From an uncultured Actinomycetes bacterium (GTDB lineage: Bacteria > Actinomycetota > Thermoleophilia > RBG-16-64-13), in NCBI GenBank assembly GCA_963706025.1, contig CAVPLM010000005.1, positions 960,001 through 1,024,000 on the forward strand: a DNA stretch of 64,000 nucleotides, written 5' to 3'. Made by a program: the position numbers and the translations under genes. This document shows, one piece after another, positions 2,609 to 50,245 of this stretch. Numbering within the stretch: the first letter of the stretch is position 1; each line of letters opens with the position of its first letter. The notes beneath the pieces are model-generated. The model had not been told where the DNA came from. It saw nothing but the letters and a program-made list of their open reading frames with translations, and made no database searches.

Positions 2609-2634
2609 GGCGCGCTCGCTATCCATTGGAAGAC

Positions 2635-10064: not shown

Positions 10065-10322
10065 GTCGTCTCTCCTCGCTAGAATCCCGCAGTTCTGCTC
10101 ACAGCTTAATGACGATCCGGCCGCCTGGCAAACCGTTTCGGAACTCGCCGCGCGAGCGACGCCACCGGTGGGGCGACGCCGGTGGCGACGACGCCGATAG
10201 GACGACGCCGCTGGGCGACACCGGCGGGGCCGGTGAGAACGGCCTGCGATGGACGGACGGGTGGGTTTCGGAGTACTGTTCACGCGGCAACCAGAGGACC
10301 CAAGGGGTCCAGAGGTGGAAGA

Positions 10323-10409
10323 ATGAACCTCGAAACGGAGACGCCGGAGGAGATCGCCATCAGCATCGCCGCCGAGCTCGTCCGGGTGAGGGCGGGCAAG
10401 AGCAGATGA
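10323..10409 (+). pseudogene. C-terminal remnant of XdhC/CoxF maturation factor
   Basis: ETPEEIAISIAAEL is the conserved XdhC C-terminus; its stop overlaps the next start (ATGA). Confidence 0.65.
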
Positions 10410-11086
10410 GCCCGGCCGGCGGGATAGCCGTCATCGTGCTCGCGGCGGGCAAGTCCTCGCGCATGGGCACGAGCAAGCTCCTGCTACCTCTCGGCGCCGT
10501 GCGCGCGATCGAACGGCTGATCGGTTCTGTCTCCCGGGCAAACGTCGACGATATCGTCGTCGTGACCGGACACGATGCAGACAGGATCACGCCCGTCCTG
10601 GACAAGCTCGCAGTGCGTCGAGTCCATAACGCCCGGTACGAGTCGGGGATGTTCTCCTCCGTTCGCACCGGAGTGAAGGCCTTGGCCGACGGCGTGGAAG
10701 CGTTCCTGGTCCTGCCGGCGGACTTAGCCTTGGTCAGGACGGAGGTCCTGGACCGGCTGATCGACGGCTTCCGCGAAAGCGGGCGCGAGATACTGCACCC
10801 GTCTTGCTGCGGGCTTCGGGGCCATCCCCCGCTTGTTGCCGGCCGCTACATAGATCCCCTGCTGCAGGCGGATGGCTGGTGCAGCCTGCAGGACTTCTTT
10901 CGCGTGTACCCTGAAGCTGAAGTCGAGATAGAGGTGGATGATCTCAGCATCCTCATGGACATGGACGACGAGGAGGACTACCGTAGGATGAGCCGGTTCG
11001 CAGGGTTCCTCGACGCGACGGCCAACACCGCGGCCGAAGCTGGAACTGGCTCTCCGGACGCAGGGAGATGGTGCGGTGTCGCCTGA
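10406..11086 (+). CDS. MocA-like molybdenum cofactor nucleotidyltransferase domain
   Basis: VLAAGKSSRMG, GMFSSV, GHPP, DMDD..DY motifs. Confidence 0.85.
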   Translation: MSPAGGIAVIVLAAGKSSRMGTSKLLLPLGAVRAIERLIGSVSRANVDDIVVVTGHDADRITPVLDKLAVRRVHNARYESGMFSSVRTGVKALADGVEAFLVLPADLALVRTEVLDRLIDGFRESGREILHPSCCGLRGHPPLVAGRYIDPLLQADGWCSLQDFFRVYPEAEVEIEVDDLSILMDMDDEEDYRRMSRFAGFLDATANTAAEAGTGSPDAGRWCGVA

Positions 11087-12210: not shown

Positions 12211-12975
12211 CTAGCGGACGATCACGGCGAGACGCTCGCCGGTGGCGGCCTGCTTGCAGGCCTCGCAGAGGTCGTAGTAGTCCTCCGGCAGGTCGCCCCG
12301 AGCCGCGACCGCGGCCCGGTGGGCCTCGGTCATGAACGGAGTGTGGCAACTCCGGCAGGCGGAGAGCTCGAAGGTACGACCCCAGATGGTGCGCGTGGTC
12401 GCGGTGTCCTCCATGGGGATGCAGTGCGTCGGGCACGCCAAGTGGCAGGCGCCGCAGCCCACGCAGGCGTCGGCGGCGGCCTGGTCGAACGGCGGGCCCA
12501 CGCTCTTGTGATCGCCGCGGCCCAGCGTGGACAGCGCGTGGTAACCAAGGGCAGCGCACACCCGCACACAGAGCTCACACAGGATGCAGCCCGGAAGCGG
12601 TGCGTCCGCGACCGGGGGGAACAACGAATGGGTCACGCCCAGCCGGGCGGCCAGCTCCTGGAGCACCGGCGCGGCCGGGGCGTAGGGCATTAGGAGCTGC
12701 AGGTTCATGGCCCGGTGCTTGCGGATGCGCGGTGAGTCCGTCACCACTTCGAGGCCCGCCGATACCGGGTAGTCGCAGGATGTGGTCAGCGCCGCCTCGG
12801 TGCGGCCGGGACGGCGCACCTCCACCAGGCAGAGACGGCAGGCGGCGATGGCGGGCACGGCTTCGTGGTGACACAGCGCCGGAATGTCGTAGCCGGCGCG
12901 CCGGGCCACGTCGAGGAGGCTCGCGCCCGCCGGCGCCGTCACCTCGACATCGTCGATCCTCAGCCTGACGTCCAT
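12211..12975 (-). CDS. NuoG-N/HoxU-like Fe-S subunit (BfuA-like)
   Basis: [2Fe-2S] C..ACRLC..SC, two CxxCxxCxxxC motifs and an extra CxxC..CxxC. Confidence 0.85.
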   Translation of the reverse strand: MDVRLRIDDVEVTAPAGASLLDVARRAGYDIPALCHHEAVPAIAACRLCLVEVRRPGRTEAALTTSCDYPVSAGLEVVTDSPRIRKHRAMNLQLLMPYAPAAPVLQELAARLGVTHSLFPPVADAPLPGCILCELCVRVCAALGYHALSTLGRGDHKSVGPPFDQAAADACVGCGACHLACPTHCIPMEDTATTRTIWGRTFELSACRSCHTPFMTEAHRAAVAARGDLPEDYYDLCEACKQAATGERLAVIVR

Positions 12976-12985
12976 CTATGACCTC

Positions 12986-14839
12986 CTACCGGACGAGGAC
13001 GGCGTCGTACCGGCACACGTCCCTGCAGATGCCGCACTTGATGCACAGCTCCTGCTCGATGGTATGGGGTTGCTTCTTCTCACCGGCCACAGCCTGCTGC
13101 GGGCAGCGCCGGGCGCAGAGCATGCAGCCGGTGCAGTTCACAGGGTCGATGGTGAAGGTGATGAGCGCCTTGCACACCCGGGCCGGGCAGCACTTCTCAT
13201 CGACGTGGGCAAGGTACTCGTCGCGGAAGTAGCGCAGCGTCGAGAGCACCGGGTTGACCGCGGTCGTCCCCAGGGCGCACAGAGAGCTGGCTTGGACGGT
13301 CTCGGCCAACTCCTCCACGAGGGCGATGGTGTCACGAGTACCGCGGCCTTCCGTGATGTCTCCGAGCAACTGGTGCAGGCGCAGGAGCCCCTCGCGGCAC
13401 GACGTGCAGTTGCCGCAGGATTCGGAGGCGAGGAATTTCAGGAAGTATTTCGCCACGTCCACCATGCAGGTGTCTTCGTCCATGACGATCATGCCCCCGG
13501 ACCCCATCATCGCGCCCTCGGAGACCAGGGTGTCGAAGTCCACGGGCAGGTCCAGCTTGTCCGCCGGCAGGCAGCCCCCTGACGGGCCGCCGGTCTGGAC
13601 GGCCTTGAAGGCCTTGCCGCCGGGGATGCCGCCGCCGATGTCGAAGATGATCCGGCGCAGGCTTATGCCCATCGGCACCTCGACCAGGCCGGTGTTGTTC
13701 ACCTTGCCCACGAGGGAGAAGATCTTCGTTCCCTTGGAGCCCTCGGTACCGATGGAACGGAACCACTCGGCGCCTCTCAGCACGATGTGAGGCACGTTGG
13801 CCCAGGTCTCGACGTTGTTGACGTTGGTGGGCTTACCCCAGAGGCCTTTCTCGGACAGGTGGATAAGCCGGCGGTGCGGCACGCCGCGGCGCCCCTCGAG
13901 CGACGCCATCATGGCGCTCGCCTCGCCGCACACGAATGCACCGCCGCCGCGGCTGATCTGGATGTCGAACGCCAGGTCGCTGCCCAGGATCGCCTCGCCC
14001 AGCAGGCCGAGCTCACGCGACTGCTCGATCGCAGTGATCAGGCGTTGCACGGCCAGCGGGTACTCCTGACGCACGTAGATGTACCCCTCGCGGGCGCCCA
14101 TGGCCAGGGCGCCGATGGTCATGCCCTCAAGGACGCTGTGCGGGTTCCCCTCGAGCACCGAGCGGTCCATGAAGGCGCCGGGATCGCCCTCGTCCGCGTT
14201 GCAGACCACGTAGCGCAGATCGCCGGGGGACTTGCTGCACGCCTCCCACTTCCGGCCCGCCGGGAACCCGGCGCCGCCCCGGCCGCGCAGGTCGGCGCGC
14301 TTGACCTCCTCGAGGATCGCTTCCGGTCCCATCTCCAGGGCCCGCACCAGCGCCGAGTAACCTCCGAGCGCGATGTAGTCGTCTATGGACGTCGGGTCGA
14401 GGTGACCGTTGTCGCGCAGCACCAGCCGCTGCTGGTTGCGGTAGAAGGGGATGTCCTCCTCCTTGCGGTGCTGCACGCCGGTCGTGGGATCCACGTAGAA
14501 CAGCCGCTCCACCATTTCGCCGCCGAGCACCGTCTTCTCGACGATCTCGGCGACGTCCTCAGCGCGCACGTGCTGGTAGAGGACGCCCTCCGGGAAGAGA
14601 AGCACGAGCGGCCCGCGCTCGCAGAACCCATGGCACCCGGTCGCGCGCAGCTCGACCTTGCGGTCGGCGCCGCGCGCCCCCAACTCGGCGCGCAAGGCCT
14701 CGAACACCTCCATGGCTCCCTGCGCCCGGCAGCCGGTGCCGCCGCACACGGCGATGACCGCCCTGCCCGGGTCCCGGGCCGCGACCAGGACGGCGCGATG
14801 GCGCTCAAGAGCATCCGGGTCGGCCAGTCTGACGGTCAT
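12986..14839 (-). CDS. NuoF/HydB-like FMN/NAD-binding subunit (BfuB-like)
   Basis: [37 protein letters not shown]-terminal thioredoxin-like 2Fe-2S domain, C-terminal 2x[4Fe-4S]. Confidence 0.92.
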
Positions 14840-14852
14840 GTCGGCTTCCGCT

Positions 14853-15344
14853 TCACGCGTGCTCCTCATGCTTCAGGAGCTTCTTGACCAGCCGAGAGAG
14901 GTGGTCCGCAGTCATGTGTCCGTGATAGGCGCCGTCGATGAGGACCAGGGGGCCGAGGGCGCACGCGCCCACGCAGTTGACCTCCTCGACGGTCAGCGAC
15001 AGATCGGCCGTGGTGCCGCCCGCGGCAACGCCCGTGTCCCGCTCGAGCTGCTCGAGCAGCCGGCGGGCGCCGCGCACGTGGCAGGCGGTGCCCATGCACA
15101 CCGTGCACGTGTGCTCGCCGCGCGGCGAGGTGTGGAAGCCCTCGTAGAAGGTCGCCACCCCGAACACCTGGGCCGGCGGCAGGCCGAGGTGGGCCGCGGC
15201 CTGCCGCAGCGCCTCCTCGGGTAGATAGCGTAACTCGCCCTGTAGATCGTGAAGAACGTTGACGAGGCTGCCCGGGTCGCCCTGTGGATAGCGGGCCAGC
15301 ACCGCTTCAACGCGGCGTGGGTCGATGGTGGGTGCGACGCTCAT
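14853..15344 (-). CDS. NuoE/HydC-like [2Fe-2S] subunit (BfuC-like)
   Basis: [21 protein letters not shown]. Confidence 0.92.
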
Positions 15345-15488
15345 GGGCCGGCCCTTGCTGCGGCGGGCCGATCGCGGCCCCGGGCATGAGTGGCGCTCAC
15401 GCCACTGCCGGCAGCGTCCACCGCGCGGAGCCCGGTGGCGCCGTTGCCCGGTATGACCAGCTTCTGGCCCACCATTCTGACTATGTGC

Positions 15489-17366
15489 TTAGGCTTGCTT
15501 GAGGCTGGCCGGCAATCTGTCGGCCAAACCTAGCTCCTGAGCTCTTTCCGGGGTAAGGTTACCCTTCTTGTCCCAACCTCTCAGCTTGTAGTACTCGGGC
15601 AACATCTCGCTCAGTTTGACCACGTGGCCCTTGGCCGGGCCGTCGGGCATGGGCTCTTCCAGCATGCGCTTGGGCAGGGTGTCGTCGGCGCCGGTGAGGC
15701 CGGCCCGGCGGTTGAAGAGCGTCTCCAGGTTGAAGATGCGCTCGCCCGTGCGCATGAAGCCCTCGTATCCACCCATGTCGATCCCGGTAGCCGCCTCGAT
15801 GAGCTCCCGAGTCTGGTCTTCGTCCACATGGAGGAAGAACGCGAAGTTGCACATCCCGCAGGCGTCGATCATGCAGAACCAGTCCTGGACCTCTTTGCCC
15901 AGAAGCGGCTTGTCGTCACAGCGCAGCGGGTCCACCTGCGTGATGCCCCGGTCACTGGTCAGCTTCCATACACATACGCCGTAGAGATCGAGGTCCTGAA
16001 CCTCACCACGAATGTGGCAGGCGCCGCGCGGCTGGGTGGCATATCCCAAGCCCATGCCTTGCAGGGCTCGTCCGTCGTAGCTGGCGAAATCCTGCTTCTT
16101 CACACCCATGAAGCATTCGGGGTGGCCGTATTTCTCGGCCAGACGGTAGGAGCCCTCGGCCAGCACGTCGCCGAAGCCCTCGCGATTGGCCATCATCTCG
16201 GTCAGCTTGACGATGGCCGTGGCATCTCCGAACCGGAGCGGGAAGCCGATGTCTTCCGCGGGGATGTAACCCCGCTCGGACATCTCCATAGCGCAGGCGA
16301 TGGTACCGCCGGCGGAGATGGTGTCCATACCCATCTCGTTGCAGATGAAGTTCGCCTTGGAGATGGCGTTGAAGTCGCTGACTCCGCAGTTGGAGCCGAA
16401 CATGCCGATGGTCTCGTATTCCGGTCCCCCGCCCACGCCGGCGAATTCAGGGTCGGTCACCCTGGTGACGCGGCCGCAGGCGACCGGGCAGGCCGGGCAG
16501 GCCGTCCCCATGAACTTCCTGACCGAGATGGTGCTGGCCAGAGCGTCGCCATCTATCTTCTGCCAATCCTCATAGACCCCCTCCTGGAAGTTGCGGGTCG
16601 GAAGCGCCCCGAACGACTGGACCAAGCCGAGCACACCCGGAGTGCCCACTCCGTGGAACCACGTGACCTCGTCGCTGTTCAAGGTGTCAAAGGCGCTTTC
16701 CGCCGCCTGGTAGAAGGCCTTGCGATCCGCGACCTTGACGCCCTTGCTACCCTTGACGGCAATGGCTTTCAAGTTTTTGGAGCCCATCACCGTGCCCACG
16801 CCGGACCGGCCGGCGGCCCGGTCGTCGTCGTTCATGACGCAGGCGAAGCGCACGAGCTTTTCTCCTGCCGGGCCGATGCTGGCCACCTTCGCCCGCGGTG
16901 ACGTGGCGGCCACGACCGCGTCTCGGGTCTGCTGGGAGTTGAGTCCCCACAGCGACTGAGCATCGCGGATCTCGACGCTGTCGTCATCTATCCACAGGTA
17001 GACGGGCTTCTTGGCCTTGCCTTCGACAATGATCATGTCGAAGCCGGCGTACTTGATTTGCATGGCGAACTCGCCCGCGGCGCTCGCGTTGGCGATGGCC
17101 CCCGTCAACGGCGACTTGGTCACCAACATGTAACGGTTGGCACACGGGGCCCCGGTGCCGGTGAGAGGCCCGGTGGCGAAGATGAGCTTGTTCTGCGGGC
17201 TGAGCGGGTCGACCGCGGGGTCGATCTCATCGTAGAGATACACCGTACCCAGGCCAATGCCACCGATGTAGTCTTTGGCCCTCTGCATGTCCAGGTCTTC
17301 GACTGAGACCTCGGACTTGGTGAGGTTGACGCGGAGGATCTTGCCTTGCCAGCCGTACATGGTCAT
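15489..17366 (-). CDS. aor: Tungsten aldehyde:ferredoxin oxidoreductase family, catalytic subunit
   Basis: KSPLTG, GRSGVG, SKNLKAI, CPACPVAC, PEYET, GMDTIS, GACH, YY..RGWD. Confidence 0.95.
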   Translation of the reverse strand: MTMYGWQGKILRVNLTKSEVSVEDLDMQRAKDYIGGIGLGTVYLYDEIDPAVDPLSPQNKLIFATGPLTGTGAPCANRYMLVTKSPLTGAIANASAAGEFAMQIKYAGFDMIIVEGKAKKPVYLWIDDDSVEIRDAQSLWGLNSQQTRDAVVAATSPRAKVASIGPAGEKLVRFACVMNDDDRAAGRSGVGTVMGSKNLKAIAVKGSKGVKVADRKAFYQAAESAFDTLNSDEVTWFHGVGTPGVLGLVQSFGALPTRNFQEGVYEDWQKIDGDALASTISVRKFMGTACPACPVACGRVTRVTDPEFAGVGGGPEYETIGMFGSNCGVSDFNAISKANFICNEMGMDTISAGGTIACAMEMSERGYIPAEDIGFPLRFGDATAIVKLTEMMANREGFGDVLAEGSYRLAEKYGHPECFMGVKKQDFASYDGRALQGMGLGYATQPRGACHIRGEVQDLDLYGVCVWKLTSDRGITQVDPLRCDDKPLLGKEVQDWFCMIDACGMCNFAFFLHVDEDQTRELIEAATGIDMGGYEGFMRTGERIFNLETLFNRRAGLTGADDTLPKRMLEEPMPDGPAKGHVVKLSEMLPEYYKLRGWDKKGNLTPERAQELGLADRLPASLKQA

Positions 17367-17851
17367 TCAGCCTCCTGGTAGGCGGTGAGAAGGGTGGCGG
17401 CCACCTTGGCTTTGCGGTCAAGGATGCCCTCGTCGCTGTCCGCGAAAGTAAGTGCGCCCGCGGCGCAGAACTTGACGCACTGCGGCACTCCGTCGCAGAG
17501 GTCGCACTTCTCGGCATAGCCCTCGTCCATGACCGTGATGCAACCATACGGGCAGGCCAGCGCGCACATCCTGCAACCCACGCAGCGGTCCTTGTTCACG
17601 GTCACCACCGTGGCTCCGGTGAGGGCGTTGATTCCCTTGCTTATGGCCCCCGAGGGGCAGATACGCGCGCACCAAGCATCCTCGCATTGGCGGCACAGCA
17701 CCGGGATAGAGACCTCCTGCTCCAAGAAGATGGTCTTGTGGATCCGAGCCTTGGAGGGGTTGAACTCACCCTTGTGCTTGAAGGAGCACCACAGCTCACA
17801 GCTACCGCACCCGGTGCACTTCTCGATGTTTACATTGATCATCTTGGTCAT
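17363..17851 (-). CDS. 4x[4Fe-4S] small subunit of AOR
   Basis: CTGCGSC..C, CRQC..C..CP, CVGCRMC..CP, CDLC..C..C; overlaps the aor start. Confidence 0.9.
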   Translation of the reverse strand: MTKMINVNIEKCTGCGSCELWCSFKHKGEFNPSKARIHKTIFLEQEVSIPVLCRQCEDAWCARICPSGAISKGINALTGATVVTVNKDRCVGCRMCALACPYGCITVMDEGYAEKCDLCDGVPQCVKFCAAGALTFADSDEGILDRKAKVAATLLTAYQEAE

Positions 17852-17897
17852 GCCTCAACCTCCTGCGAAGACTTGCACGACATGGCCGGCCCCAACC

Positions 17898-18191
17898 TCA
17901 ACCCCCGGCCGTGGGAAGAAACACCGTGACCAGATCGCCGTCGTGAAGCGACGTGTCCAAACGCTCCGCGAAAGCGATGTTCCTACCATTCACCAGCACA
18001 TTGACCCCGGGCCTGACGGAACCCGGCTGCGCGTATATGGTCTGCGTCTGCTCGGGCGTGGTGCATATGAAGCCCAAGAGATCGCCGGCGGTGCGCGCCC
18101 GGGCAAGATCGAGGCTCATCTCCGTCTGCCGAAAGACGTCCTTCAAGCTGCCAAGAAACCTCACCGTCACTTTGCCGTTGGCGGCTTCCAT
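17898..18191 (-). CDS. MoaD/ThiS ubiquitin-like sulfur carrier
   Basis: VLVNGRN..DGD..PTAGG ending in Gly-Gly. Confidence 0.88.
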   Translation of the reverse strand: MEAANGKVTVRFLGSLKDVFRQTEMSLDLARARTAGDLLGFICTTPEQTQTIYAQPGSVRPGVNVLVNGRNIAFAERLDTSLHDGDLVTVFLPTAGG

Positions 18192-18208
18192 CGATACGCT
18201 GATCGCTC

Positions 18209-19027
18209 CTAATCGCTTCGGGATCCGGCATCAGGTGGGGTCATCGTAGTAGCGCCGTCCGAACCAGGATACCACCCGTGAGCCGGGGTATGCGCCGGGC
18301 TGGCCGTATCGTCCTCGGTCGTGGCCAGCCCCAGATATGCCCTCCTGACGTGCTCGTTGTCTTGCAGGTGCTTGGCGTCGTCCGCCAGAGTGATGACGCC
18401 CGTCTCCATGACGTAGCCCTTGTCGGCGATCTTGAGAGCCATGCTGGCGTTCTGCTCTATGAGAAGGATCGAGACACCCTCAGTGGCGATGCGGGCGATG
18501 ATCTCCCCCACTTCCTGCGTGACCAGGGGCGACAGACCAAGAGAGGGTTCGTCCAGCAGTAGGAGTTTGGGGGCGCACATCAACCCTCTGCCGATGGCGA
18601 GCATCTGCTGCTCCCCACCGCTCAAGGCCGAGGCGAGCCGGCGCGCTGCCTTTTTCAACACGGGAAAGTACTCGTAGATCTTCTCCAGATCGCTGGCTAT
18701 ACCGGCCTTGTCCCTTCTGAGATAGGCGCCGGTGAAGAGGTTGTCGTAGACACTCATTTCCAGAAACAGCCTCTTGCCTTCTGGAACGTGACCGATGCCC
18801 AACCCCACCACTTTGTCCGGTTTCATCCCATCGATTCTCTTATCCTCATACCAGATCTCCCCCGCCGAAAGCCGTACCAGACCCGAGATCGCCTTCAAGC
18901 AGGTGCTCTTGCCCGCGCCGTTGGACCCGATAAGAGTGGTGATGCTCCCGGCGGCGACTTCCAGAGAGATCCCCTTGAGCGCCCTGACCCCGCCGTAGCG
19001 CACCTCTACGTTCTTCAAGCTGAGCAT
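18209..19027 (-). CDS. livF: HAAT (Liv) ABC transporter ATP-binding subunit
   Basis: GSNGAGKS, VPEGK, LSGGEQQM, LDEPSLGL. Confidence 0.88.
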   Translation of the reverse strand: MLSLKNVEVRYGGVRALKGISLEVAAGSITTLIGSNGAGKSTCLKAISGLVRLSAGEIWYEDKRIDGMKPDKVVGLGIGHVPEGKRLFLEMSVYDNLFTGAYLRRDKAGIASDLEKIYEYFPVLKKAARRLASALSGGEQQMLAIGRGLMCAPKLLLLDEPSLGLSPLVTQEVGEIIARIATEGVSILLIEQNASMALKIADKGYVMETGVITLADDAKHLQDNEHVRRAYLGLATTEDDTASPAHTPAHGWYPGSDGATTMTPPDAGSRSD

Positions 19028-19030
19028 GCC

Positions 19031-19789
19031 TTAGCTCCTACCCAGGTAGGCTTCTATTACTTCTTGATGGGAGCAGACATGATCGGGGCTGCCCTGGCAG
19101 ATCTTCCGGCCGAAGTTGATCACCGTGATCTCCTCGCAGGTGCTCATGACCGCCTTCATGTCGTGCTCCACCAACAAGATGGTTATACCGGTGTCGCGCA
19201 GATGCTTGATGCGTTCCATCATGTCTTTGGTCTCGCTCGGGTTCATACCGGTGACCGGCTCGTCGAGCAGCAGCATCTTCGGTTCGGTAGCCAGGGCCAT
19301 GGCCACCCCCAGAGCTTCCTGGTGACCATGCGGCAAAGACCCAGAGATCTCGTCCTTCACATGGGCTATCCCCATGGCTTCCAGTATGGCGACGGATTTC
19401 TCCTCGATCTCCCTGTCTCGCCGCTTTGTACCTCGGGTCATGAGGTACTGCTTGACGAGCCCCATCCCCGTGTGGAGATGACAGGCCATGACCACATTCT
19501 GGAGGGCAGTCATATCCCGAAAGAGGTTGGTAAGTTGAAAGGTGCGGGCCATCCCTCTGCTGGCCACCATGTGTGGCGGTTGCCCGGTTATGTCCTCTCC
19601 CTGCCAGATCACCTTGCCTCTGGTGGGGTGGAGAAAACCGGTTATGCAATTGAACACGGTGGTCTTGCCGGAGCCGTTGGGGCCGATCAGACCCCGGATC
19701 TCGCCCTCCTCGATGCTCATGTCGAGATCGTCGACCGCCACCAGTTCTCCGAACTGCTTCCTCAGACCTTGTAGCTCGAGAATGGCCAT
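19031..19789 (-). CDS. livG: HAAT (Liv) ABC transporter ATP-binding subunit
   Basis: GPNGSGKT, RTFQ, LDEP, VEHDM, AYLG. Confidence 0.88.
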   Translation of the reverse strand: MAILELQGLRKQFGELVAVDDLDMSIEEGEIRGLIGPNGSGKTTVFNCITGFLHPTRGKVIWQGEDITGQPPHMVASRGMARTFQLTNLFRDMTALQNVVMACHLHTGMGLVKQYLMTRGTKRRDREIEEKSVAILEAMGIAHVKDEISGSLPHGHQEALGVAMALATEPKMLLLDEPVTGMNPSETKDMMERIKHLRDTGITILLVEHDMKAVMSTCEEITVINFGRKICQGSPDHVCSHQEVIEAYLGRS

Positions 19790-20805
19790 CAGTCCTGCTC
19801 CTCCGTCGTCACATTCTCGGGCGTCGTCGAATCCTCAGACGCCTTGCCCCCATCCTGTCTTCGCCGGTACCAGGACTGTAGCCGCTTGGGCACGCCCTCG
19901 AGGCCCTCCGGCAAGAAGAGCAGAGTCAATATCAGGATGGCGCCGTAGAACATGGGCAGCCATTCCGCCAGAGGGTCGAGGAGTTGATCTATCAGCGTAA
20001 GCACGGATACCCCTATGATGGGACCGGCGAAGGTGCCCGTACCCCCGAACACCACCCACACCAGGAGATACAGGGTGGGGGTGAAGCCGAACTGGTTGGG
20101 TGAGATGGCCCACATGCGATGGACCAGGATGACCCCCGCAACCCCGGCGAAGAAACCACCGATCACGAAGACCAGCATCTTGTACTTGACCACGTTTATG
20201 CCTAGGGCCCTGGCCAGACTCTTCTGAGAATGGATGGCATGGAAGGTGGCTCCTATGCGGGATCGGCACACGCGGTACATGAGCCACAGGCAGACTGCCG
20301 TTATCAACAGCGCCAAGAAGTAGTACGGGATGGGCCGGCTGAAATCGACCGCTCCGATGGACCCCGGATCGGGGATGTTCGCCAAGCCCGTGTGGCCCCC
20401 GAAAGGCTGCCTGAACCTGGTCCAGCACAGCCGCATTGCTTCCCCGGCGGCATAGGAGGCTATGAAGAAGGAGAAACCCGTTGTACGGGAGAGGGGAACG
20501 CTCATGATCAACGCGATGACTCCCGCGATGATCGCCGACAGCAGCAGGCTGGGCCAGAATGGCCAGCCCAGGGTCCCCGTGATCAGGGCGCTCGCGTAGG
20601 CGCCTGCGCCCATCAGGGGCAGGTGGGCCAGCGACCAGTCGCCGATTATGGTGATGAGGCGGAAGCTCGACACCAGAATGATGTTGACGAACAGCATGGT
20701 CAGCAGGTCGACGTAGTAGTGACTTAGTAGGAAGGGCAGCACCGCGCCAACGACCGCGAGGACGACCAGAATAAGTGTGGTAGTTAGTGTTTTGCTATTC
20801 CGCAT
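19789..20805 (-). CDS. livM: HAAT (Liv) ABC transporter permease
   Basis: Hydrophobic protein with SLAH, SRIG..AI, GG.GT..GP motifs. Confidence 0.85.
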   Translation of the reverse strand: MRNSKTLTTTLILVVLAVVGAVLPFLLSHYYVDLLTMLFVNIILVSSFRLITIIGDWSLAHLPLMGAGAYASALITGTLGWPFWPSLLLSAIIAGVIALIMSVPLSRTTGFSFFIASYAAGEAMRLCWTRFRQPFGGHTGLANIPDPGSIGAVDFSRPIPYYFLALLITAVCLWLMYRVCRSRIGATFHAIHSQKSLARALGINVVKYKMLVFVIGGFFAGVAGVILVHRMWAISPNQFGFTPTLYLLVWVVFGGTGTFAGPIIGVSVLTLIDQLLDPLAEWLPMFYGAILILTLLFLPEGLEGVPKRLQSWYRRRQDGGKASEDSTTPENVTTEEQD

Positions 20806-21652
20806 GGCCCAACAACCCTTGAGGTCTGACGGCCAGGAATACCAGCAGGAAGACCGTGATCAACAAGTTGGAGATGGTGGAATCGAACACCGTCGTCAAG
20901 ATGGTGTCGAGAAAACCGAACAAGGCGGAGGCCAAAATGGCCCCCTTCAGGTTGCCCTGTCCGCCTATGATCACGATGACGAAGGCCATCCAGATGACCA
21001 TCCCGCCCATGTAGGGATAGACGGACATGACAGGAGCCATCAGGGCGCCGGCCGCCCCTGCCATAGCGCATCCGATCAGCATGGCGATGGCCGAGGCCCG
21101 GTTGACGCTTATGCCCTGGAGTGCGGCCGCCGTTGCGTCCTGGGCGGACGCCCGGAGGGCCCGGCCTATCCGGGTCCGATTGAGGAAGAGTATGAGAATG
21201 GCGATAAGGACGATCGCTCCAACGAATACCATGATCCTCTGAACGTCGACGCTCACACCACCGACGCGGACGACCTCGCCCTTGTACGGAGCCGGGACCC
21301 TCTTCATCTTGCCGACGCCCCACAACCGCCCCACGGCGACCTGCAGGATGAACACGAGCCCTATGGAAGCGATGAAGCCGGGGATCAACTGACCGCGCAG
21401 CGGCCTGAAGATGATTCTCTCGGTGACTGCGCCCAGGATCCCTACGAGGACGATGCCCATCACGAGCGCCGCGAAATACGGCCAGGAGTTGCGGGCATAG
21501 AGGACATAGATCGCGTAGGCTCCCAGCATGTAGAACTCGCCGTGGGCGAAGTTCACGATCTTCATGACGCCGAACACCAGCGTAAGTCCCACGGCCACGA
21601 GAGCGTAGAAGGCGCTGGTTATGAGGGCATTGGCTATTGTCTGACCAATCAT
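20795..21652 (-). CDS. livH: HAAT (Liv) ABC transporter permease
   Basis: GLTLVFGVMKIVNFAHGE, GRALRA, IIGG.G. Confidence 0.9.
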   Translation of the reverse strand: MIGQTIANALITSAFYALVAVGLTLVFGVMKIVNFAHGEFYMLGAYAIYVLYARNSWPYFAALVMGIVLVGILGAVTERIIFRPLRGQLIPGFIASIGLVFILQVAVGRLWGVGKMKRVPAPYKGEVVRVGGVSVDVQRIMVFVGAIVLIAILILFLNRTRIGRALRASAQDATAAALQGISVNRASAIAMLIGCAMAGAAGALMAPVMSVYPYMGGMVIWMAFVIVIIGGQGNLKGAILASALFGFLDTILTTVFDSTISNLLITVFLLVFLAVRPQGLLGHAE

Positions 21653-21736
21653 GTTTCTTCTCGATCTTATTACGTCTTGGCAAGAATCAAGCTGTCACGC
21701 GCCTTTCTGCTACCGGCAGGAGCAGAACACCAGATT

Positions 21737-21768
21737 GGTGGCTGGACCGCTGTCGCGACCCAGCCACC
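21737..21768 (-). terminator. Intercistronic stem-loop after the substrate-binding gene
   Basis: ggtggctgg ... ccagccacc inverted repeat. Confidence 0.45.
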
Positions 21769-21803
21769 CATATTCTTCTTCCGAGGCCGTTGCTCCGCCG
21801 CTA

Positions 21804-23188
21804 CTACTGGACCGACAGATTCCATTTCACGAGGTATTTCTCAAGAATCGCCGCGTTGTCGCCCTCTGCCATCCACTCGTTGATGTTTTTCCAGCCCTCG
21901 ATGGCCGGTTTCCCATCGCGGATCACGGTCATGGGCACCGTGGGGGCGAGGAGTTGGTCGATGCCGAAGTACGCCATGCCTGTCCAGTTCCCGGTCCCGA
22001 ACGACCGCGGAACATCCTTTCCGGCCCGCAGCGCCTGGCTGACCGCTTCCCCGTCGATGCTGCCCGCCTGCTGCGCGGCCCACACCCAGACGTCAAGCGC
22101 CGAGGCGTATTCCCAGGTGATCTCCGAGTACGAGCTGTCGGGGTACTCCGCTTTCCATACATCCCAGAATTCCTGGTAGGTCTTGCCGGCGGCAAAAACG
22201 CCTTTTCCAGCTTCGGATCGTCGAAGTCCGGGAAGTTGGACACCGAGCCTTCCATGAACTCCTTCGGGACTTTGGCCAGGATGGCGCCGAAGTCCCAACA
22301 GGCGGAGGTTATGATGCCTTCCCACCCCTGCAGGTAGGCCTGCTCGCAGATCAGTGCTTGATACTCGGGGTAGCAGGCTCCCAGGTTGATGATGTCGGGT
22401 TCACTGGCCAGCACCTTGGTCACGATCTGGGCGAAGTCGGTGGTATCCAGCGAGAAGGGTTCGTCGTACACCACTTCAAGGCCGTCAACTTCGGCCCCGG
22501 CCTCAGACCAAGCGACGGCGGCGATGCCGATCTCATCGTCCTGAGAGAGGATGGCCATCTTCTTCGCGTCCGGATACGTCTCCTTGATATAGCGCACGTT
22601 AAGTGCATGATAGGTGGGGAAGTTGTCCGTCACGGCGAACAGATAAGGCCTGTCCGCTTTCAAGTCCTGTGCGATGAGCGTGAACGAGGGGATCTTCTGC
22701 TCGGTCAGGAACGGTGCCATGGAGGCGCTGGTGGCTCCCCCTAGGTCGAGGATCAACGAACACCCGTCCTCCAACACCAGTTTCCGGGCACCGAGCAGAG
22801 CCTCGTCGGGGATGGCCTGGTTGTCATACTCGACGATCTCGAACGTATAGGTCGTGTCGCCGATCTTCACCCCGCCGGCTTCGTTGTACCAGTTGGTCAC
22901 GATCGTCAGACCTTCCATGCCGGGCAGGCCCCACGCCGCAGCCCCTCCGGTCAGGGGGGCGTTCATGCCGACCTTCACGACTCCGGTCGCACCTGCTGCC
23001 GTTGTCTCGGTCGGCGCTGCGGTCGTCTCGGTCGGCGCTGCGGTCGTCTCGGTCGGCGCCGCGGTCGTCTCGGTCGGCGCTGCGGTCGTCTCGGTTTCCT
23101 CTTCTCCACAAGCGGCCAACATTAGCCCAAGCACCAGCATCAGGCCAAGAGCTATCACGATGAGTTTGTAGCTGCTTACCTTGCGCAT
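21804..23188 (-). CDS. Liv-family substrate-binding lipoprotein (frameshift near 22200)
   Basis: Lipobox LAAC, PLTGGAAAWG, TDFAQIVT; C-terminus continues in ORF 21804..22325. Confidence 0.85.
23001..23095. repeat. 21-bp tandem repeat (about 4.5 copies) encoding a TETTAAP linker
   Basis: gtcgtctcggtcggcgctgcg units. Confidence 0.9.
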
Positions 23189-23607
23189 CTTCCCTCCCTA
23201 ATACGTCACTCCGTTACGGACTGAGTACCCCTGCGCCAAGCACTGTTTCCAGATGACTACCTCCTTCTGACCTCCCAGGTCTGTTATCGCGCGCTTGCCC
23301 ATGAGCGTCCAACCAGGCCGAGCAGATCGAATCGGCTGAGACACGTCATAACTGGGAAGAGGAGGATCGAAAATGGTGCGCGCGCACGGCAGTGACGCGA
23401 GTCGGAGCAGTTGCTGCCTGTCTGCGACGACGATCATCGCCCCTCCCCCTCAGACGCTCCTGCGACATGAATCACCTGACGGCAGTCCCACAATAGTCCT
23501 TCTCGTTGTGTTTTGTCTACCCCCCGGGAGAGGAACTCCTAGCCGCCCGCGGCGCCGCGTTCCAGAGTCCCGGACACTTGGTGAGAGAACCGGAGGTGCA
23601 GTACCGT

Positions 23608-24016
23608 ATGCCCATGTGGACAGGCCGGCAGCTCCTGACCTCGTACAACAATGGAAAGGGCGGCGTTGTCTCTGTGCTCGCCGAGACCTCGATCGGCGTC
23701 ACGTTCGACGAACGCGGCGACCTGGGCGGCCTTGCGGGCTGCAACTCGTTCTGGGGAGCCTACACCACGGACGGCGACACGCTCTCGATCAGCTCCCTCG
23801 ATTCCACCAACCTGTCCTGCACGGAGCCGGCAGGCATAATGGAGCAGGAGGCGGCGTACCTGAGCGCGTTGCGCGACGCCGCCACGTTCAGATACCAGGG
23901 GGGACGCGCTCGAGCTGAGAGCGGCGGACGGGGCTCTCGTCGCCTCGTACGAAGCCTGGAAAGCACCTCCCGGCGGGCTGTTTCATGGTGGTTCCCCGCA
24001 ACCGACCTCGCCGTAG
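23608..24016 (+). pseudogene. META (HslJ-like) domain paralog, no signal peptide, frameshifted near 23900
   Basis: GLAGCNSF..ST..SC.EP.G.MEQE; the shifted frame reads TLELRAADG..SYEAW..PPGG like the downstream gene. Confidence 0.65.
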
Positions 24017-24114
24017 GTGGGTTGGGCCGGGTGAAGTGCTGTAATCTATGAAGTCACTTTTGGCCGTCGAAGGCGATGGGGGTAGACGGCCGATGAACGA
24101 TTGGGGGATCATCC

Positions 24115-24594
24115 ATGAACGGCAAACAGCTGTTGGCACTGCTCAGAGCAGCCGTCGTGCTGGGTGCTCTGTTCGCGGTCGTCTTCTCCTTGGGTTGTGC
24201 CTCCACTGAGCCGGAGTCCGGCGCCGCGCTGCCCGGCACTTCCTGGGTGCTGAGCTCCTACGGAGACGGGAACGGTGGGCTGGTCTCAGTGCTCGAGGAC
24301 ACCCGTGTCAGCATCGCCTTCTCCGATAACGGGGACCTGGCCGGCTTGGCCGGCTGCAACTCGTATTGGGGCACTTACGCCACCGAGGACGACGAGCTGT
24401 CGATCGAATCGCTTGATTCCACTTCCTTGTCCTGCACAGAGCCGGCGGGCGTCATGGAGCAGGAGAAGGCTTGCCTGCAGGCCTTGCGAGATGCCGCCAC
24501 TTTCGAGATCGAGGGGGACACGCTCGAGCTGCGATCGGACGACGGAAGCCTCCTTGCCTCGTACGACGCCTGGAACCTGCCGCCGGGTGGCTGA
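24115..24594 (+). CDS. META (HslJ-like) domain lipoprotein
   Basis: Lipobox SLGC; LPGTSWVL, GLAGCNSY, MEQE. Confidence 0.85.
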   Translation: MNGKQLLALLRAAVVLGALFAVVFSLGCASTEPESGAALPGTSWVLSSYGDGNGGLVSVLEDTRVSIAFSDNGDLAGLAGCNSYWGTYATEDDELSIESLDSTSLSCTEPAGVMEQEKACLQALRDAATFEIEGDTLELRSDDGSLLASYDAWNLPPGG

Positions 24595-24810: not shown

Positions 24811-25122
24811 CTAGCCCCCCGCGATCGGCGGGAATATCGCGACCTCGTCTCCGTCGTGGAGCGTGGCGCCGGCGCCACCCAAGAACGCGATGTTGTGACC
24901 GTTGAGCAAGACGAGGAACCCTTCCCTGATGCCTCCGGACTCGTCAAGGAGCCCATGTCTTTGCTCCGGAGTGGTGCAGAGTGCCTCGAGGAGCCGCCCT
25001 ATGTCCGCCGCTTGCCCAATGGCAACGCGGGACTCCTTCTGCCCGAAGAGGTACCTGAGCCCGGCGAACAGCCTGACCGTGACGCCGGTGTCGTGACTGT
25101 TCTCGCCCGCCTGCATGGTCAT
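24811..25122 (-). CDS. MoaD/ThiS ubiquitin-like sulfur carrier
   Basis: VRLFA..LLNG..DGDEVAIFPPIAGG. Confidence 0.88.
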   Translation of the reverse strand: MTMQAGENSHDTGVTVRLFAGLRYLFGQKESRVAIGQAADIGRLLEALCTTPEQRHGLLDESGGIREGFLVLLNGHNIAFLGGAGATLHDGDEVAIFPPIAGG

Positions 25123-26981
25123 TCTCTACGGCTCAGAGCCGTCGAGGGCAGGCCATCGATCGCCACCACGGTGGGCTCGTCGAGGGGCGCCGCGATCCCC
25201 AGTTCGCCGAGCTTCTCTGAAGTCGGTCTGCCGTCAGAGTCCCAACCGCGAAGCCCGTAGTACTCATCGAGCATCGGCAGCAGATCGACCACGCGGCCTT
25301 TCGAGGGACCTTCGGCGACCGGCTCGAAGAGCAGGCGCGGCGGCAAGGTATCGTCCGCACGGGTGAAACCGGCGCGGAGATTGAAAAGCCGCTCTAGGTT
25401 CCAGATACGCTCACCCGTCTCCAGGAGCTCGCGCGTTTCTACAGTCTCGCCCGTGACCGCGGAGAGCAGCCGAGCGAAGTGGTCTTCCTTCATGACATAG
25501 GCGGCGAACTTACACTCCAGAAGTGAGTCGAGCACGGCGTTGAGGTTCTGCAGGTGTATGAGCAGGGCGGCCTTACCGTGGACGGCGAAGCGGTCCACCA
25601 GCTCGGGCACACCGAAGATCTCCGGCCCCAGCATGTTGGCCCGCGCGTGACACGCGCCCCGGTTAGAGGTGGCGAAGGCTAGGCCTTGGCCGCTCATCCC
25701 ACGAGGATCGAAGGCCGGGATCTCGAGTCCCTTCACCTGCATTGCCAGCTCGGGACGCCCATAGCGGACGGCCAGGCGGCGACTGCCCTCGGCGAGCTCA
25801 TCGCCCAGGTCGCGCCGGTAGGCGGTGGCAGAGATGAGTTCGCGTAGCGCTGCCGCATCCCCGAAGCGCGGTCCGCCCCTCAGCACGCCCTCTTCGGCAA
25901 GCTCCATCGCACAGGCGATGGTGGCTCCCATAGTCATGGTATCGAGGCCCAAGCGGTTGCAGGCATGGTTGGCCTCCACGACGGCGCCGAGGTCGCCGAC
26001 ACCGCAGTCGGGACCCAACGCCCAAAGGCTTTCGTACTCGGGACCCTGAGTCGCGCCGCTCGCCGAGCGCGTGCGCCGGGCGCAGCCGATGAAGCAGCCG
26101 GTGCAGGCGGCGCGTTTCCTCACGAAGTCGGTGCGGAGCGCCTCGCCGCTGACGAGCTCGGCCGACTCGAACCGCGAGGCGCGGAAGTTGCGGGTCGGCA
26201 GAGCTCCCACTTGATCGAGAACGTTCAGAAGCACCGAGGTGCCGAACTCGGGTAGAGCCTGGCTGGTGATGGGGTTCGTCCTCAGCAAGGCGCGGGCCTC
26301 GGACACCACGAGGTCGAAGCTCCGTCTGTCTGCCGGCCCGGGCGACAAGCCGCTGCCCTCACCTAGTACCACGGCCTTGAGGAGCTTGGCGCCCATCACG
26401 GCGCCCAGACCGCCGCGGCCGATCTGTCGACCGCGATTGTTGGCGACCGAGGCGAATAGGACCCCTCGCTCCCCGGCCGGGCCGATCACGGCCGCTTCTA
26501 CGCGGCCGTGAAGCTCCCGCAGCCGGGCGAGCGTGGCCGGCACGTCGAGACCCCACAACTCCTGGGCGGGAAGCACGCGTATGCCATCGTCACCGATGAA
26601 GAGGTAGGAGGGTTCGCCGCAGGCACCGGTGATGACAAGGTAGTCGAGCCCGAGGCGACGCAAAGCCATACCGAAGCCGCCACCTGAGTTCCCGTCGAAG
26701 ATCGTACCGGTGAGCGGGGAGCGGGAACTGAGGCTGTAGCGCGCGGCCGAGGGCGCGCCGCTACCGGTCAGTGGTCCGATGGCAAATACGAGCGGATTGC
26801 CGGGCGCGAGCGGCTCCACTTCGTACATGCCTTCGCTCAGCAGCAGGTACGCGCCCAATCCTCGACCGCCAACCACCGCGCGCCGAACGTGCGGAGGCAG
26901 CTCCTCGCGCGCCGCGCTGCCCGCCGACAAGTCCACGCGCAAGCCGCGGAGCGCATGGCGATCCGTCTCCGTCACAGTCAT
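25119..26981 (-). CDS. aor: Second tungsten aldehyde:ferredoxin oxidoreductase family protein
   Basis: RSPLTG, GRGGLG, CTGCFIGC, PEYES, GACH, YY..RGWD. Confidence 0.92.
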   Translation of the reverse strand: MTVTETDRHALRGLRVDLSAGSAAREELPPHVRRAVVGGRGLGAYLLLSEGMYEVEPLAPGNPLVFAIGPLTGSGAPSAARYSLSSRSPLTGTIFDGNSGGGFGMALRRLGLDYLVITGACGEPSYLFIGDDGIRVLPAQELWGLDVPATLARLRELHGRVEAAVIGPAGERGVLFASVANNRGRQIGRGGLGAVMGAKLLKAVVLGEGSGLSPGPADRRSFDLVVSEARALLRTNPITSQALPEFGTSVLLNVLDQVGALPTRNFRASRFESAELVSGEALRTDFVRKRAACTGCFIGCARRTRSASGATQGPEYESLWALGPDCGVGDLGAVVEANHACNRLGLDTMTMGATIACAMELAEEGVLRGGPRFGDAAALRELISATAYRRDLGDELAEGSRRLAVRYGRPELAMQVKGLEIPAFDPRGMSGQGLAFATSNRGACHARANMLGPEIFGVPELVDRFAVHGKAALLIHLQNLNAVLDSLLECKFAAYVMKEDHFARLLSAVTGETVETRELLETGERIWNLERLFNLRAGFTRADDTLPPRLLFEPVAEGPSKGRVVDLLPMLDEYYGLRGWDSDGRPTSEKLGELGIAAPLDEPTVVAIDGLPSTALSRRE

Positions 26982-27219
26982 GGTGTGAGTATAGCCGATA
27001 GGCTTGGTCGCTCCCGCCGGCAGTGGCCCCCCTCTGCCCACCCGGAGGCGAGGCAGGCACCGGCCCCCGGTCAGGCCGCGTCGGGGTGGACGGCACAAGA
27101 AACGCCCCGCGAGGGGCAGGATTCTTGCCCGGCCTTCCCGTAGCGTGATACGCTGAGATACACCCTTGCGAGCATGGCAAATCGATCCATGCCGCGCTAT
27201 TCGATGGGGGTATTATCCA

Positions 27220-29862: not shown

Positions 29863-29867
29863 GCTGT

Positions 29868-30497: not shown

Positions 30498-30501
30498 CGA
30501 G

Positions 30502-31416: not shown

Positions 31417-31447
31417 CCTTCGCCTCGGACCTTCGGGACTCGATCCA

Positions 31448-31490
31448 TCGGGGGGGCCCTCCGGCAGGAGGGCCCCCCCGAGTCTTTCTT
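31448..31490 (+). terminator. Intrinsic terminator
   Basis: tcggggggg ccctcc-ggca-ggaggg cccccccga followed by tctttctt. Confidence 0.8.
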
Positions 31491-31498
31491 AGAGGAAA

Positions 31499-50100: not shown

Positions 50101-50212
50101 GCTTCGACCTCCGCTCGCGCTTTGATCCCGGGGCGGCCGCACGTGCCGCCCTACCCGTCAACTATGATTTACCGGGCCCGGAACTACAACCCTCGTGTGG
50201 GATACGTGTGAA

Positions 50213-50245
50213 GGTGGCGGAGCCGGTTCCACCGGCTCCGCCACC
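50213..50245 (-). terminator. Perfect 15-bp stem hairpin after the substrate-binding gene
   Basis: ggtggcggagccggt-tcc-accggctccgccacc. Confidence 0.7.

Follow-up and report, generated by a model that had tools for sequence, protein, structure and literature searches.

The gene run considered here lies on the minus strand of a 64,000-nucleotide stretch (the window) of contig CAVPLM010000005.1, which belongs to the metagenome-assembled genome (MAG) of an uncultured member of the Thermoleophilia (Actinomycetota). Between window positions 12211 and 23188, it comprises eleven closely packed, co-directional open reading frames (ORFs). In the order of reading, these encode a substrate-binding protein (SBP), the two permeases and two ATPases of a Liv-type importer, a MoaD/ThiS-like protein (WorX), and five proteins (WorS, WorL, WorC, WorB, and WorA) that correspond to the subunits of a tungsten-type aldehyde oxidoreductase (AOR) coupled to a BfuABC module. 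Neighboring ORFs overlap or are separated by 1-46 nt, except that WorL and WorC stand 144 nt apart and that another gap follows the SBP gene. An earlier, sequence-only reading of the window had described a single co-directional run from the SBP gene through livHMGF and moaD to WorSLCBA, and all of its ORFs are indeed found at their minus-strand places, with Pfam in agreement. Together, Liv importer and WorXSLCBA look like one operon, as judged from their arrangement.

The predicted catalytic subunit is WorL (15489-17366; here and below, positions are on the minus strand unless marked +), a tungstopterin aldehyde oxidoreductase protein of 625 amino acids (aa) that matches AFOR_N with 276 bits and AFOR_C with 449 bits. 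Its best solved match is 9mqx_D (638 bits), from the WorABCSL complex of Acetomicrobium mobile; the other best matches are 1aor and 8c0z. The cluster ligands (CxxCxxxC and a further cysteine) and the active-site glutamate and histidine align with those of 1aor (P. furiosus AOR) and 9mqx_D, and the latter two residues we take to be the E313 and H448 positions of the P. furiosus enzyme. WorS (17363-17851) is a polyferredoxin of 162 aa with four [4Fe-4S] clusters according to Pfam and structure matches, and the 16 cysteines for these clusters are invariant in 24 sequences. Its C-terminal helix segment is conserved whichever cap gene follows in the operon. WorX (17898-18191), recognized through Pfam and NCBIfam, ends in the C-terminal GG; in the literature, it is proposed to act in the maturation of the pterin cofactor and is not counted as an enzyme subunit (PMC13328260 section 11; PMC6365974).

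The remaining three subunits resemble the diaphorase side of bifurcating enzymes. WorC (14853-15344) is a BfuC/NuoE-like, thioredoxin-like [2Fe-2S] protein (2Fe-2S_thioredx), and its best solved matches are all BfuC proteins, among which 9mqx_C ranks fourth. WorB (12986-14869) is a BfuB/HydB-like protein of 627 aa that combines 2Fe-2S_thioredx, Complex1_51K, SLBB, NADH_4Fe-4S, and C-terminal Fer4 domains. A 2Fe-2S domain stands at its N-terminus and a 2 x [4Fe-4S] region at its C-terminus, and it also has the FMN/NAD site, one 4Fe-4S motif, and the His/Cys site. Its best solved relatives are all electron-bifurcating BfuB proteins (670-808 bits), including 7t2r_B, the HydB of a NiFe-hydrogenase (808 bits), and 9mqx_B (802 bits); the best beta subunit of a formate dehydrogenase (FDH) reaches 384 bits, and NuoF of complex I at most 363. 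WorA (12211-12975; Fer2_4 and Fer4) is a short BfuA of 254 aa, for which 9mqx_A is the best match over the full length (E 7.6e-43; residues 5-246 align with 7-239 of 247). The zinc finger aligns between the two proteins in both of its CxxC pairs, the four-cysteine motif of the window's WorA being C207, C210, C237, and C240, and a set of 22 WorA sequences shows no variation in the cysteines of the 2Fe-2S, 2 x 4Fe-4S, and Cys4 motifs. In Foldseek, an AlphaFold model of WorA (pLDDT 76.6) likewise finds 9mqx_A as its first match (E 9e-19, with a TM score of only 0.42), and the model contains a C-terminal helix at residues 238-253.

These matches bear out several claims of the sequence-only reading. 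It had assigned the long HydB layout to the NuoF-like protein, and all motifs that it quoted are present in the WorB translation, which carries two stretches of 17 and 16 residues, the N-terminal 2Fe-2S cysteine pattern, and two C-terminal CxxCxxCxxxC motifs. It had equated the five-subunit set with WorABCSL of A. mobile, and all five proteins match 9mqx chains. It had also stated that the A subunit lacks an H-cluster or catalytic domain, and the Pfam and NCBIfam search of WorA finds none either. In the published description of the class, WorA is a short BfuA that has clusters A1, A2, and A4 but neither A3 and A5 nor a catalytic domain, and that carries a zinc finger of the Cys4 type and an adaptor helix at its C-terminus (PMC12318220, in section 7). 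The bifurcating BfuBC core formed by WorB and WorC comprises the FMN/NAD site, B1, the B2 site, B3 and B4 in the C-terminal domain, the N-terminal 2Fe-2S cluster B5, and the 2Fe-2S cluster C1. Further marks of the class are an NAD+ and a ferredoxin reduction that depend on each other during aldehyde oxidation, and an assembly of ABC and SL units at 1:3. The operon survey of PMC13328260 gives two arrangements for Class IV WORs, SLCBA (type 1, as in E. limosum) and CBASL (type 2, as in A. mobile), either of which may include WorX. The order in the window, X-S-L-C-B-A, is that of the type 1 operon, and at the sequence level the window shows the class features of WorL, WorS, WorA, and WorB/WorC together with this operon order. 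Since the subunits match 9mqx and the gene order is published, the kind of enzyme is already known. One new aspect is a Class IV WOR in a Thermoleophilia host with about 17 AOR paralogues.

The importer that precedes the enzyme consists of a LivH-type permease of the HAAT family (20795-21652; BPD_transp_2, E 2e-42), a LivM-type permease (19789-20805; BPD_transp_2), a LivG-type ATPase (19031-19789; ABC_tran), and a LivF-type ATPase (18209-19027; ABC_tran). All four genes are intact by Pfam. For this importer, none of the Liv and Urt equivalog models of NCBIfam attains its cut-off: UrtB and LivH models match the first permease below cut-off, the LivG model gives 258.6 bits against a cut-off of 362, and the best model for the second ATPase is LivF, also below its cut-off.

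The SBP gene at the head of the run is interrupted in this assembly. As called, its ORF encodes 419 aa, with a lipoprotein signal (LAAC|G) and about 90 terminal residues that are rich in Arg, Pro, and Ser and out of frame. The 5' part (22204-23188), in the frame of the ATG at 23188, supplies about 328 N-terminal codons and the start of Peripla_BP_6, and the 3' part (21804-22203) lies in another frame, inside an ORF at 21804-22325, and covers Peripla_BP_6 profile positions 256-322. Because the missing C-terminal part sits in that ORF, the gene would end at 21804 and not at 21929. Of the SBP ORF proposed earlier (21929-23188), the Peripla_BP_6 assignment therefore stands, and the last 90 or so residues and the end position do not. 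In alignment with a metagenome contig that is 98% identical there (L107), the window is 4 nt short at 22200-22207; the L107 allele encodes an intact SBP lipoprotein of 462 aa, in which both parts are continuous. Indels at 22200/22203 that restore the frame also occur in contigs of three other runs (X1, X2, and X6). An X-Pro dipeptidyl-peptidase gene elsewhere in the window (8300-10283) looks split into two overlapping ORFs in a similar manner, with the N-terminal part of Peptidase_S15 at 9279-10283 and PepX_C at 8300-9484 in different frames, and this second apparent frameshift would fit indel errors of the assembly. Given the restoring indels in three runs and the split S15 peptidase, an assembly indel in the SBP gene is as likely as a real pseudogene. 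Between the SBP lipobox and the binding domain, five tandem TETTAAP repeats are found (window about 22990-23110), the register of which is shifted relative to L107 in blastn.

Conservation of gene order ties the importer to the catalytic part of the enzyme. Twenty loci extend at least 2.5 kb upstream of WorL, and 14 of them, the near-identical L107 included, have LivF/G orthologues (at least 50% identity) there; in two further loci, Liv genes are found downstream of WorL. The loci examined for base composition, which include most of those with Liv, span a G+C content of 44% to 70%. In the closest genome relative (G015), SBP, LivH, and LivM orthologues of 73-79% identity lie 4 kb beyond AorC, the FAD subunit of AorABC enzymes, which follows WorL there. 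The sequence-only reading had called the importer a dedicated one, and because the Liv-WorX-S-L synteny is conserved in 14 of the 20 informative loci, with orthologous Liv beside orthologous WorX-S-L, the idea of an own importer is supported. Judged from gene order, the link of the importer to this AOR subclade is conserved, mainly in relatives of the N type (AorABC, see below).

Further genes recur in the AorABC loci that carry Liv. In 13 of them, the gene immediately after AorC encodes a flotillin of 640-790 aa (Band_7 and Flot; L114-L119, L125, L129, L130, L132, L134, L139, and L161), and two further SPFH genes come after it in L132 and L139. This arrangement may hint at an anchoring of the nanowire enzyme in membrane rafts near the importer. 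The genome of the window has no flotillin homologue in blastp at E 1e-15. The LivF proteins of three such loci (L114, L116, and L119) are 400-426 aa long and have about 170 extra C-terminal residues that lack a Pfam match; LivF of the window has 272 aa.

The WorL-WorC junction (15345-15488) is the widest interval within the enzyme genes. A promoter and terminator scan finds no terminator-like site in it, the site counts in the window not being above those of shuffled sequence, and no earlier start of WorC (in-frame ATG, GTG, or TTG) is seen there by eye. Nowhere in the window does an Rfam match attain the gathering score of its family, and no riboswitch of the molybdenum cofactor (Moco) type was found; two sub-threshold Rfam matches inside WorL were judged to be chance. 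Assembled contigs of one metatranscriptome run (X20) cover parts of WorL (15569-15746 and 17134-17359), WorX with the end of LivF (17858-18238), and the LivF/LivG junction (18983-19123), and, as such contigs do not show transcript ends and may derive from DNA, they are usable neither for nor against a single transcript. Logan DNA contigs of two runs break near 15362-15371. A chimeric assembly as the source of the architecture was rejected, as separate contigs (L107, L108, L109, and L144) carry S-L and then C-B(-A). The 144-nt gap is likely the seam at which the WorCBA module joins.

The two halves of the enzyme have different relatives. When species-representative genomes were searched for WorA, 26 loci matched over nearly the full length, of which 13 belong to Actinomycetota/Thermoleophilia, 10 to Myxococcota or 'Deltaproteobacteria', and 3 to Dehalococcoidia. 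In the 13 Thermoleophilia loci, WorC, WorB, and WorA are 70-78% identical to those of the window, and WorS and WorL only about 40 and 48%. WorA was found in 25 of 79 genomes of another Thermoleophilia family, which has full clusters ordered S-L-C-B-A, in none of 60 other genomes of the host's own family, and in none of three from the same genus. WorL of that other family scores 769 bits against 9mqx_D, as compared to 638 bits for WorL of the window. The host's own family has WorL orthologues of 72-82% identity in four genomes (G015, G008, G252, and G276); AorC directly follows WorL in the first three of these, and the contig of the fourth ends at WorL. The closest of them (G015, WorL 82% identical) has AorC where the window has WorCBA.

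A scan of metagenomes with WorL of the window as query gave 56 loci, and the gene after WorL (at least 60% identity) is readable in 31 of them. In 25, it encodes an AorC-like Pyr_redox_2/Rubredoxin_C protein (AorABC, or 'N type'), in four (L108, L109, L142, and L144) WorC/B follow (the BF type), and in two a WorA-like gene is next, with AorC coming after it in one. In these last two loci, the WorA-like protein (38-39% identical; Fer2_4 and Fer4) occurs apart from WorB and WorC: L127 has it at 6832-7626, with genes for the alpha and beta chains of a 2-oxoacid dehydrogenase E1 upstream of WorX, and L137 (1868-3341) has WorL, the WorA-like gene, and then the AorC-like Pyr_redox_2 gene.

A careful WorL tree of 50 rows, which omits L107 because it nearly duplicates the window and also six rows whose coordinates took in a stop codon, places the window in a 9-row clade (UFBoot 100, SH-aLRT 99). 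In this clade, the BF rows L108, L109, and L144 are interleaved with the AorC rows L112, L113, L123, and L141, and the clade is itself nested in a group of 35 rows that are mostly loci with AorC and Liv. WorL of the other family's BF clusters forms a separate clade of four rows. Forcing the eight BF rows into one WorL clade is rejected (delta lnL 485, p-AU 1e-71); this group was defined by the downstream genes, but it was named after the first tree had been seen. In contrast to this tree, a quick WorB tree of 24 rows has a single clade of 11 rows (SH-aLRT 100) that comprises the window, L108, L109, L144, and every WorB protein from the other family, with L108 grouping with L021-L023.

Taken at the level of sequence, the operon is a hybrid, in which WorX-S-L and Liv come from a lineage that otherwise consists mostly of AorABC enzymes with three subunits and NAD as acceptor, and WorCBA is close to that of the other Thermoleophilia family. 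The simplest reading is that, on nanowires of the AorAB type, AorC gave way to a joined WorCBA module on more than one occasion. Section 5 of a recent account states that BF and N types are phylogenetically distinct, the BF type being a branch of clade 87 (PMC12318220), and a repeated joining of WorCBA departs from that distinctness, because BF and AorC rows interleave in the WorL tree. WorL of the window, whose placement in clade 87 is drawn only from its best matches 9mqx_D, 1aor, and 8c0z, nests among AorC-linked WorL proteins and not in a distinct BF branch. Replacement of one cap by another fits the published structures: AorC caps and nucleates the AorAB filament (PMC10413684) and WorABC plugs the (WorSL)3 wire (PMC12318220).

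The host genome is a MAG of 3.66 Mb (92% complete, 7.3% contaminated), and the contig of the window exceeds 1.1 Mb. It has 19 AFOR_C matches, corresponding to about 17 AOR-family genes, and one WorA and one close WorS only. An orthologue of AorC is absent from the genome, the best AorC-like ORF, located elsewhere, being 25% identical. Two genes for group A6 [FeFe] hydrogenases stand beside NuoF-like genes on contig C10. Near-identical DNA occurs in runs labelled as freshwater or sediment metagenomes from 10 studies, and a metagenome search with WorA gave 771 matches, the 120 best of which are all at least 63% identical.

Based on homology to A. mobile WorABCSL, the following route may be proposed. 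An imported compound, most plausibly an amino compound that a GABA-type (4-aminobutyrate) transaminase would turn into a semialdehyde, would be converted to an aldehyde inside the cell, and WorL would oxidize this aldehyde to the acid at its pterin site. WorS would then carry the electrons through its chain of [4Fe-4S] clusters to WorA, and the flavin core of WorBC would reduce NAD+ and ferredoxin together, so that part of the energy would be kept as reduced ferredoxin. The HydABC-type [FeFe] hydrogenases of the host could turn reduced ferredoxin and NADH into H2. According to the structural account of the A. mobile enzyme, WorSL units feed the WorBC bifurcating core through the WorA clusters A4-A2-A1 (PMC12318220). 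The oxidative direction is favored because the aldehyde/acid couple lies at about -560 mV, as compared to about -500 mV for ferredoxin and about -280 mV for NAD (values from PMC9304861).

We assign a probability of about 0.78 to the reading that the locus encodes a Class IV, BfuABC-coupled, tungsten-type WorXSLCBA enzyme behind a HAAT/Liv importer, that it is of hybrid origin, and that it oxidizes an aldehyde derived from an imported compound. In this reading, complex formation, bifurcation, the use of tungsten rather than molybdenum, a single transcript, and an imported substrate are what we infer. A number of observations weigh against it. WorL and WorC are separated by 144 nt, and no contig of the RNA library crosses 15345-15488. 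WorB scores equally on HydB of the NiFe-hydrogenase (808 bits) and on WorB (802 bits), and WorC has 9mqx_C only in fourth place, so that B and C by themselves are not diagnostic of a WOR. For WorS, AorA (8c0z_C, 126 bits) is a slightly better match than WorS of A. mobile (9mqx_E, 117 bits). In Dehalococcoidia, WorA-like proteins (35-37% identical) are encoded alongside 2-oxoacid oxidoreductases, and clusters of CBA and S occur in Myxococcota where WorL is not nearby; as both groups carry the short BfuA in other settings, it alone is not proof of a WOR partner.

Other points weigh against the importer part of this reading. The SBP gene is frameshifted in the window's assembly, and its product has weak similarity to solved binding proteins (at most 37.6 bits), among which both amino-acid and aromatic-acid binders are found. 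One of the matched proteins is named as a branched-chain amino-acid binding protein, and others belong to the 4ey3/3tx6 family, which we take to be aromatic-acid binders. Liv together with WorCBA is seen only in the window and the near-identical L107; of the two BF loci of this clade that extend far enough upstream, the other one, L109, has no Liv within 8 kb. Finally, the window's operon contains no aminotransferase; the host's orthologues (60-63%) lie elsewhere in the genome, one of them beside another AOR paralogue, and the transaminase idea therefore rests, for the window, on its relatives only.

The settings of the short BfuA outside Thermoleophilia are distinct from each other. The Myxococcota loci (L024-L033 and L036) have WorC-B-A (54-71% identical) and then a WorS-like gene, and an AOR-family gene was not found in the fetched flanks. 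In Dehalococcoidia (L038, L039, and L041), the WorA-like gene (35-37%) comes after genes of a 2-oxoacid:ferredoxin oxidoreductase and a fused NADH_4Fe-4S/Fer4_20/Pyr_redox_2 protein, which is a different use of the short BfuA.

Three other explanations of the locus were weighed. WorCBA could be a non-bifurcating, NAD(P)+-reducing diaphorase cap that has replaced AorC, making the complex a plain aldehyde:NAD+ oxidoreductase for which ferredoxin is not obligatory. The nearest WorSL relatives do use the NAD-only AorC, such that the nanowire evidently works with NAD-only output, and NuoEF-type modules are found in non-bifurcating Hox and FDH enzymes. However, WorB has the whole bifurcating layout, from the N-terminal 2Fe-2S domain and the His/Cys site to the C-terminal 2 x [4Fe-4S], all of its best solved relatives are bifurcating BfuB proteins, and A. 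mobile WorABCSL reduced neither acceptor alone (PMC9304861). We consider a non-bifurcating cap unlikely. A still smaller chance is given to WorCBA being separate from WorSL, that is, serving another partner, such as one of the other 16 or so AOR paralogues, or acting as a free NADH:ferredoxin module that stands next to WorSL through an accident of recent rearrangement. The gap of 144 nt with no RNA evidence across it, the different histories of the two modules in the WorL and WorB trees, and the Myxococcota clusters of CBA and S that lack an adjacent WorL would all agree with a separate module. On the other hand, WorA lacks any catalytic domain, the host genome has one WorA and one close WorS only, no terminator-like site was found in the gap, and the S-L-C-B(-A) junction recurs on separate contigs (L108, L109, and L144). 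As WorB of these three loci branch apart, this junction has been formed or kept repeatedly.

A reversed reaction, in which an imported carboxylic acid would be reduced to the aldehyde with NADH and reduced ferredoxin (confurcation), is the most improbable of the three. Some solved relatives of the SBP (the 4ey3 and 3tx6 family) presumably bind aromatic acids, which such a role would suit. The GABA-type transaminases of related loci point instead to an aldehyde made from amines, and thus to the oxidative direction. AOR-family enzymes are able to reduce non-activated acids, as mentioned in PMC9295118, but the mixed NADH/ferredoxin donor would be far too weak for a couple at about -560 mV (PMC9304861).

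A possible source of the aldehyde is suggested by genes of the relatives. GABA-type transaminases make semialdehydes from omega-amino compounds, and an AOR beside such a transaminase could replace a semialdehyde dehydrogenase. In G015, two class-III aminotransferases flank X-S-L-AorC, the first of which passes the cut-off of the 4-aminobutyrate transaminase model TIGR00700 (557.8 bits against 506.65; its homologue in L116 has 574). Homologues are found in six of 55 non-self metagenome loci (L115, L116, L117, L121, L122, and L139), a count in which L116 and L117 are identical at this place and most loci are too short to tell.

A broader model is tentative, and we hold it to be possible rather than probable. 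WorS/WorL, equivalent to the AorA/AorB nanowire, may be a general socket on which the caps AorC and WorABC have been swapped repeatedly in sediment Thermoleophilia and their relatives, and the enzyme of this subclade may be the semialdehyde step of a pathway that leads from a HAAT importer through a GABA-type transaminase to a tungsten AOR, and not a generic detoxifier. If so, the enzyme replaces a semialdehyde dehydrogenase, and the WorCBA version saves energy as reduced ferredoxin for H2. The conserved importer and GABA-type transaminase offer a testable hypothesis, namely that omega-amino acids or amines are broken down by way of an aldehyde, and the importer supplies a binding protein that is open to ligand screening. 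The interleaving of AorC and WorCBA on WorSL backbones that are 68-82% identical in WorL represents a natural experiment on what aldehyde oxidation gains from bifurcation. A further suggestion from it is that both caps dock on the same nanowire, which would be useful for the engineering of AOR systems. Moreover, the host range of Bfu-coupled WORs would extend to abundant uncultured Actinomycetota of sediments. Three points are worth following: the repeated swaps between the caps AorC and WorCBA, the conservation of the importer, and the link to a transaminase, which hints at a defined physiological role.

The surroundings of the operon hold further genes for pterin-dependent enzymes. Just upstream (24811-27098) are a second AOR-family gene and a MoaD-like gene of its own. 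The former begins with a TTG, encodes 659 aa, of which some 50 precede AFOR_N, and is 42% identical to WorL; the latter comes directly after it (24811-25122) and is 44% identical to WorX. A MobA-like gene lies at 10109-11086. On the plus strand, 27166-31502 (+) encodes a molybdopterin oxidoreductase of the bis-PGD type, a 4Fe-4S subunit, and a 325-aa ORF that lacks a Pfam match. A trio of the same kind, in which the third gene is NrfD-like, adjoins the AorABC cluster of G015 (L172 13933-18108), and the two neighborhoods are therefore syntenic but rearranged. META-domain genes (23506-24594) adjoin the SBP gene both in the window and in G015. Farther away, the window contains a molybdopterin enzyme with a pyrogallol-hydroxytransferase-like N-terminal domain beside another Peripla_BP_6 binding protein (47508-51764), and URO-D-like and B12-binding genes (61575-63318), which hint at an anaerobic metabolism of aromatic or methoxylated compounds. 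In addition, there are a bacterial serpin of 472 aa (6748-8166 (+); Serpin E 1.5e-110) and an 828-aa protein (1418-3904), the C-terminal 300 residues of which form an ADP-ribosylglycohydrolase.

The distribution given in the literature centers on other phyla. The 2022 paper on Bfu enzymes assigns Wor-Bfu to Synergistetes and Firmicutes and leaves Actinobacteria unmentioned (PMC9304861). The main text of the 2026 classification mentions neither Actinobacteria or Thermoleophilia nor branched-chain transport, and the only Actinomycetota listed in its supplements are Coriobacteriia, which stand in a genome table with no evident tie to Class IV (PMC13328260). Within open-access full text, no link was found between Thermoleophilia and aldehyde ferredoxin oxidoreductase, nor was an AorABC-type tungsten AOR linked with an ABC transporter; the paper on the Aromatoleum AOR (PMC6365974) is silent on transport. 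The sequence-only reading had known of no such enzyme from an actinobacterial-type host or with a Liv importer, and the open-access full text gave nothing against this, with the limit that the published set of 102 Class IV enzymes may include Actinomycetota.

In comparison with the known Class IV enzymes, A. mobile WorABCSL (9mqx) and E. limosum WOR1, the window has the same five subunits and the same predicted cofactor sites. Its WorA is likewise a short protein with neither an A3 nor an A5 cluster and with the four-cysteine zinc finger of the A. mobile protein, and its operon shares the type 1 order, (X)SLCBA, with that of E. limosum. Its host, on the other hand, belongs to the Thermoleophilia, whereas Synergistetes, Firmicutes, and Methanofollis are named in the papers considered (PMC13328260; PMC9304861). 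Unlike canonical BF WORs, it has a WorL and WorS from the AorABC-type branch and a Liv importer immediately upstream. The WorSLCBA clusters of the other Thermoleophilia family (L016-L023 and L026, among others) share the order S-L-(X)-C-B-A and have WorC/B/A of 70-78% identity, whereas their WorS and WorL are only 40 and 48% identical to those of the window, their WorL is closer to that of A. mobile, and the 5 kb upstream of these clusters showed no Liv genes. The importer resembles LivJHMGF/HAAT systems in its two BPD_transp_2 permeases, two ATPases, and Peripla_BP_6 lipoprotein, and it differs from them in its Liv and Urt scores, which stay below the cut-offs, in an SBP that is distant from all solved binders, and in the frameshift of the SBP gene. 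With AorABC of Aromatoleum aromaticum (8c0z), the window shares a MoaD-like gene in the operon and a WorS that is most similar to AorA and keeps a C-terminal segment like its filament-forming helix. The closest relatives of its WorL (62-82% identity) carry the AorC-like Pyr_redox_2 protein as the next gene, whereas the window has the WorCBA output cap and lacks AorC in both operon and genome.

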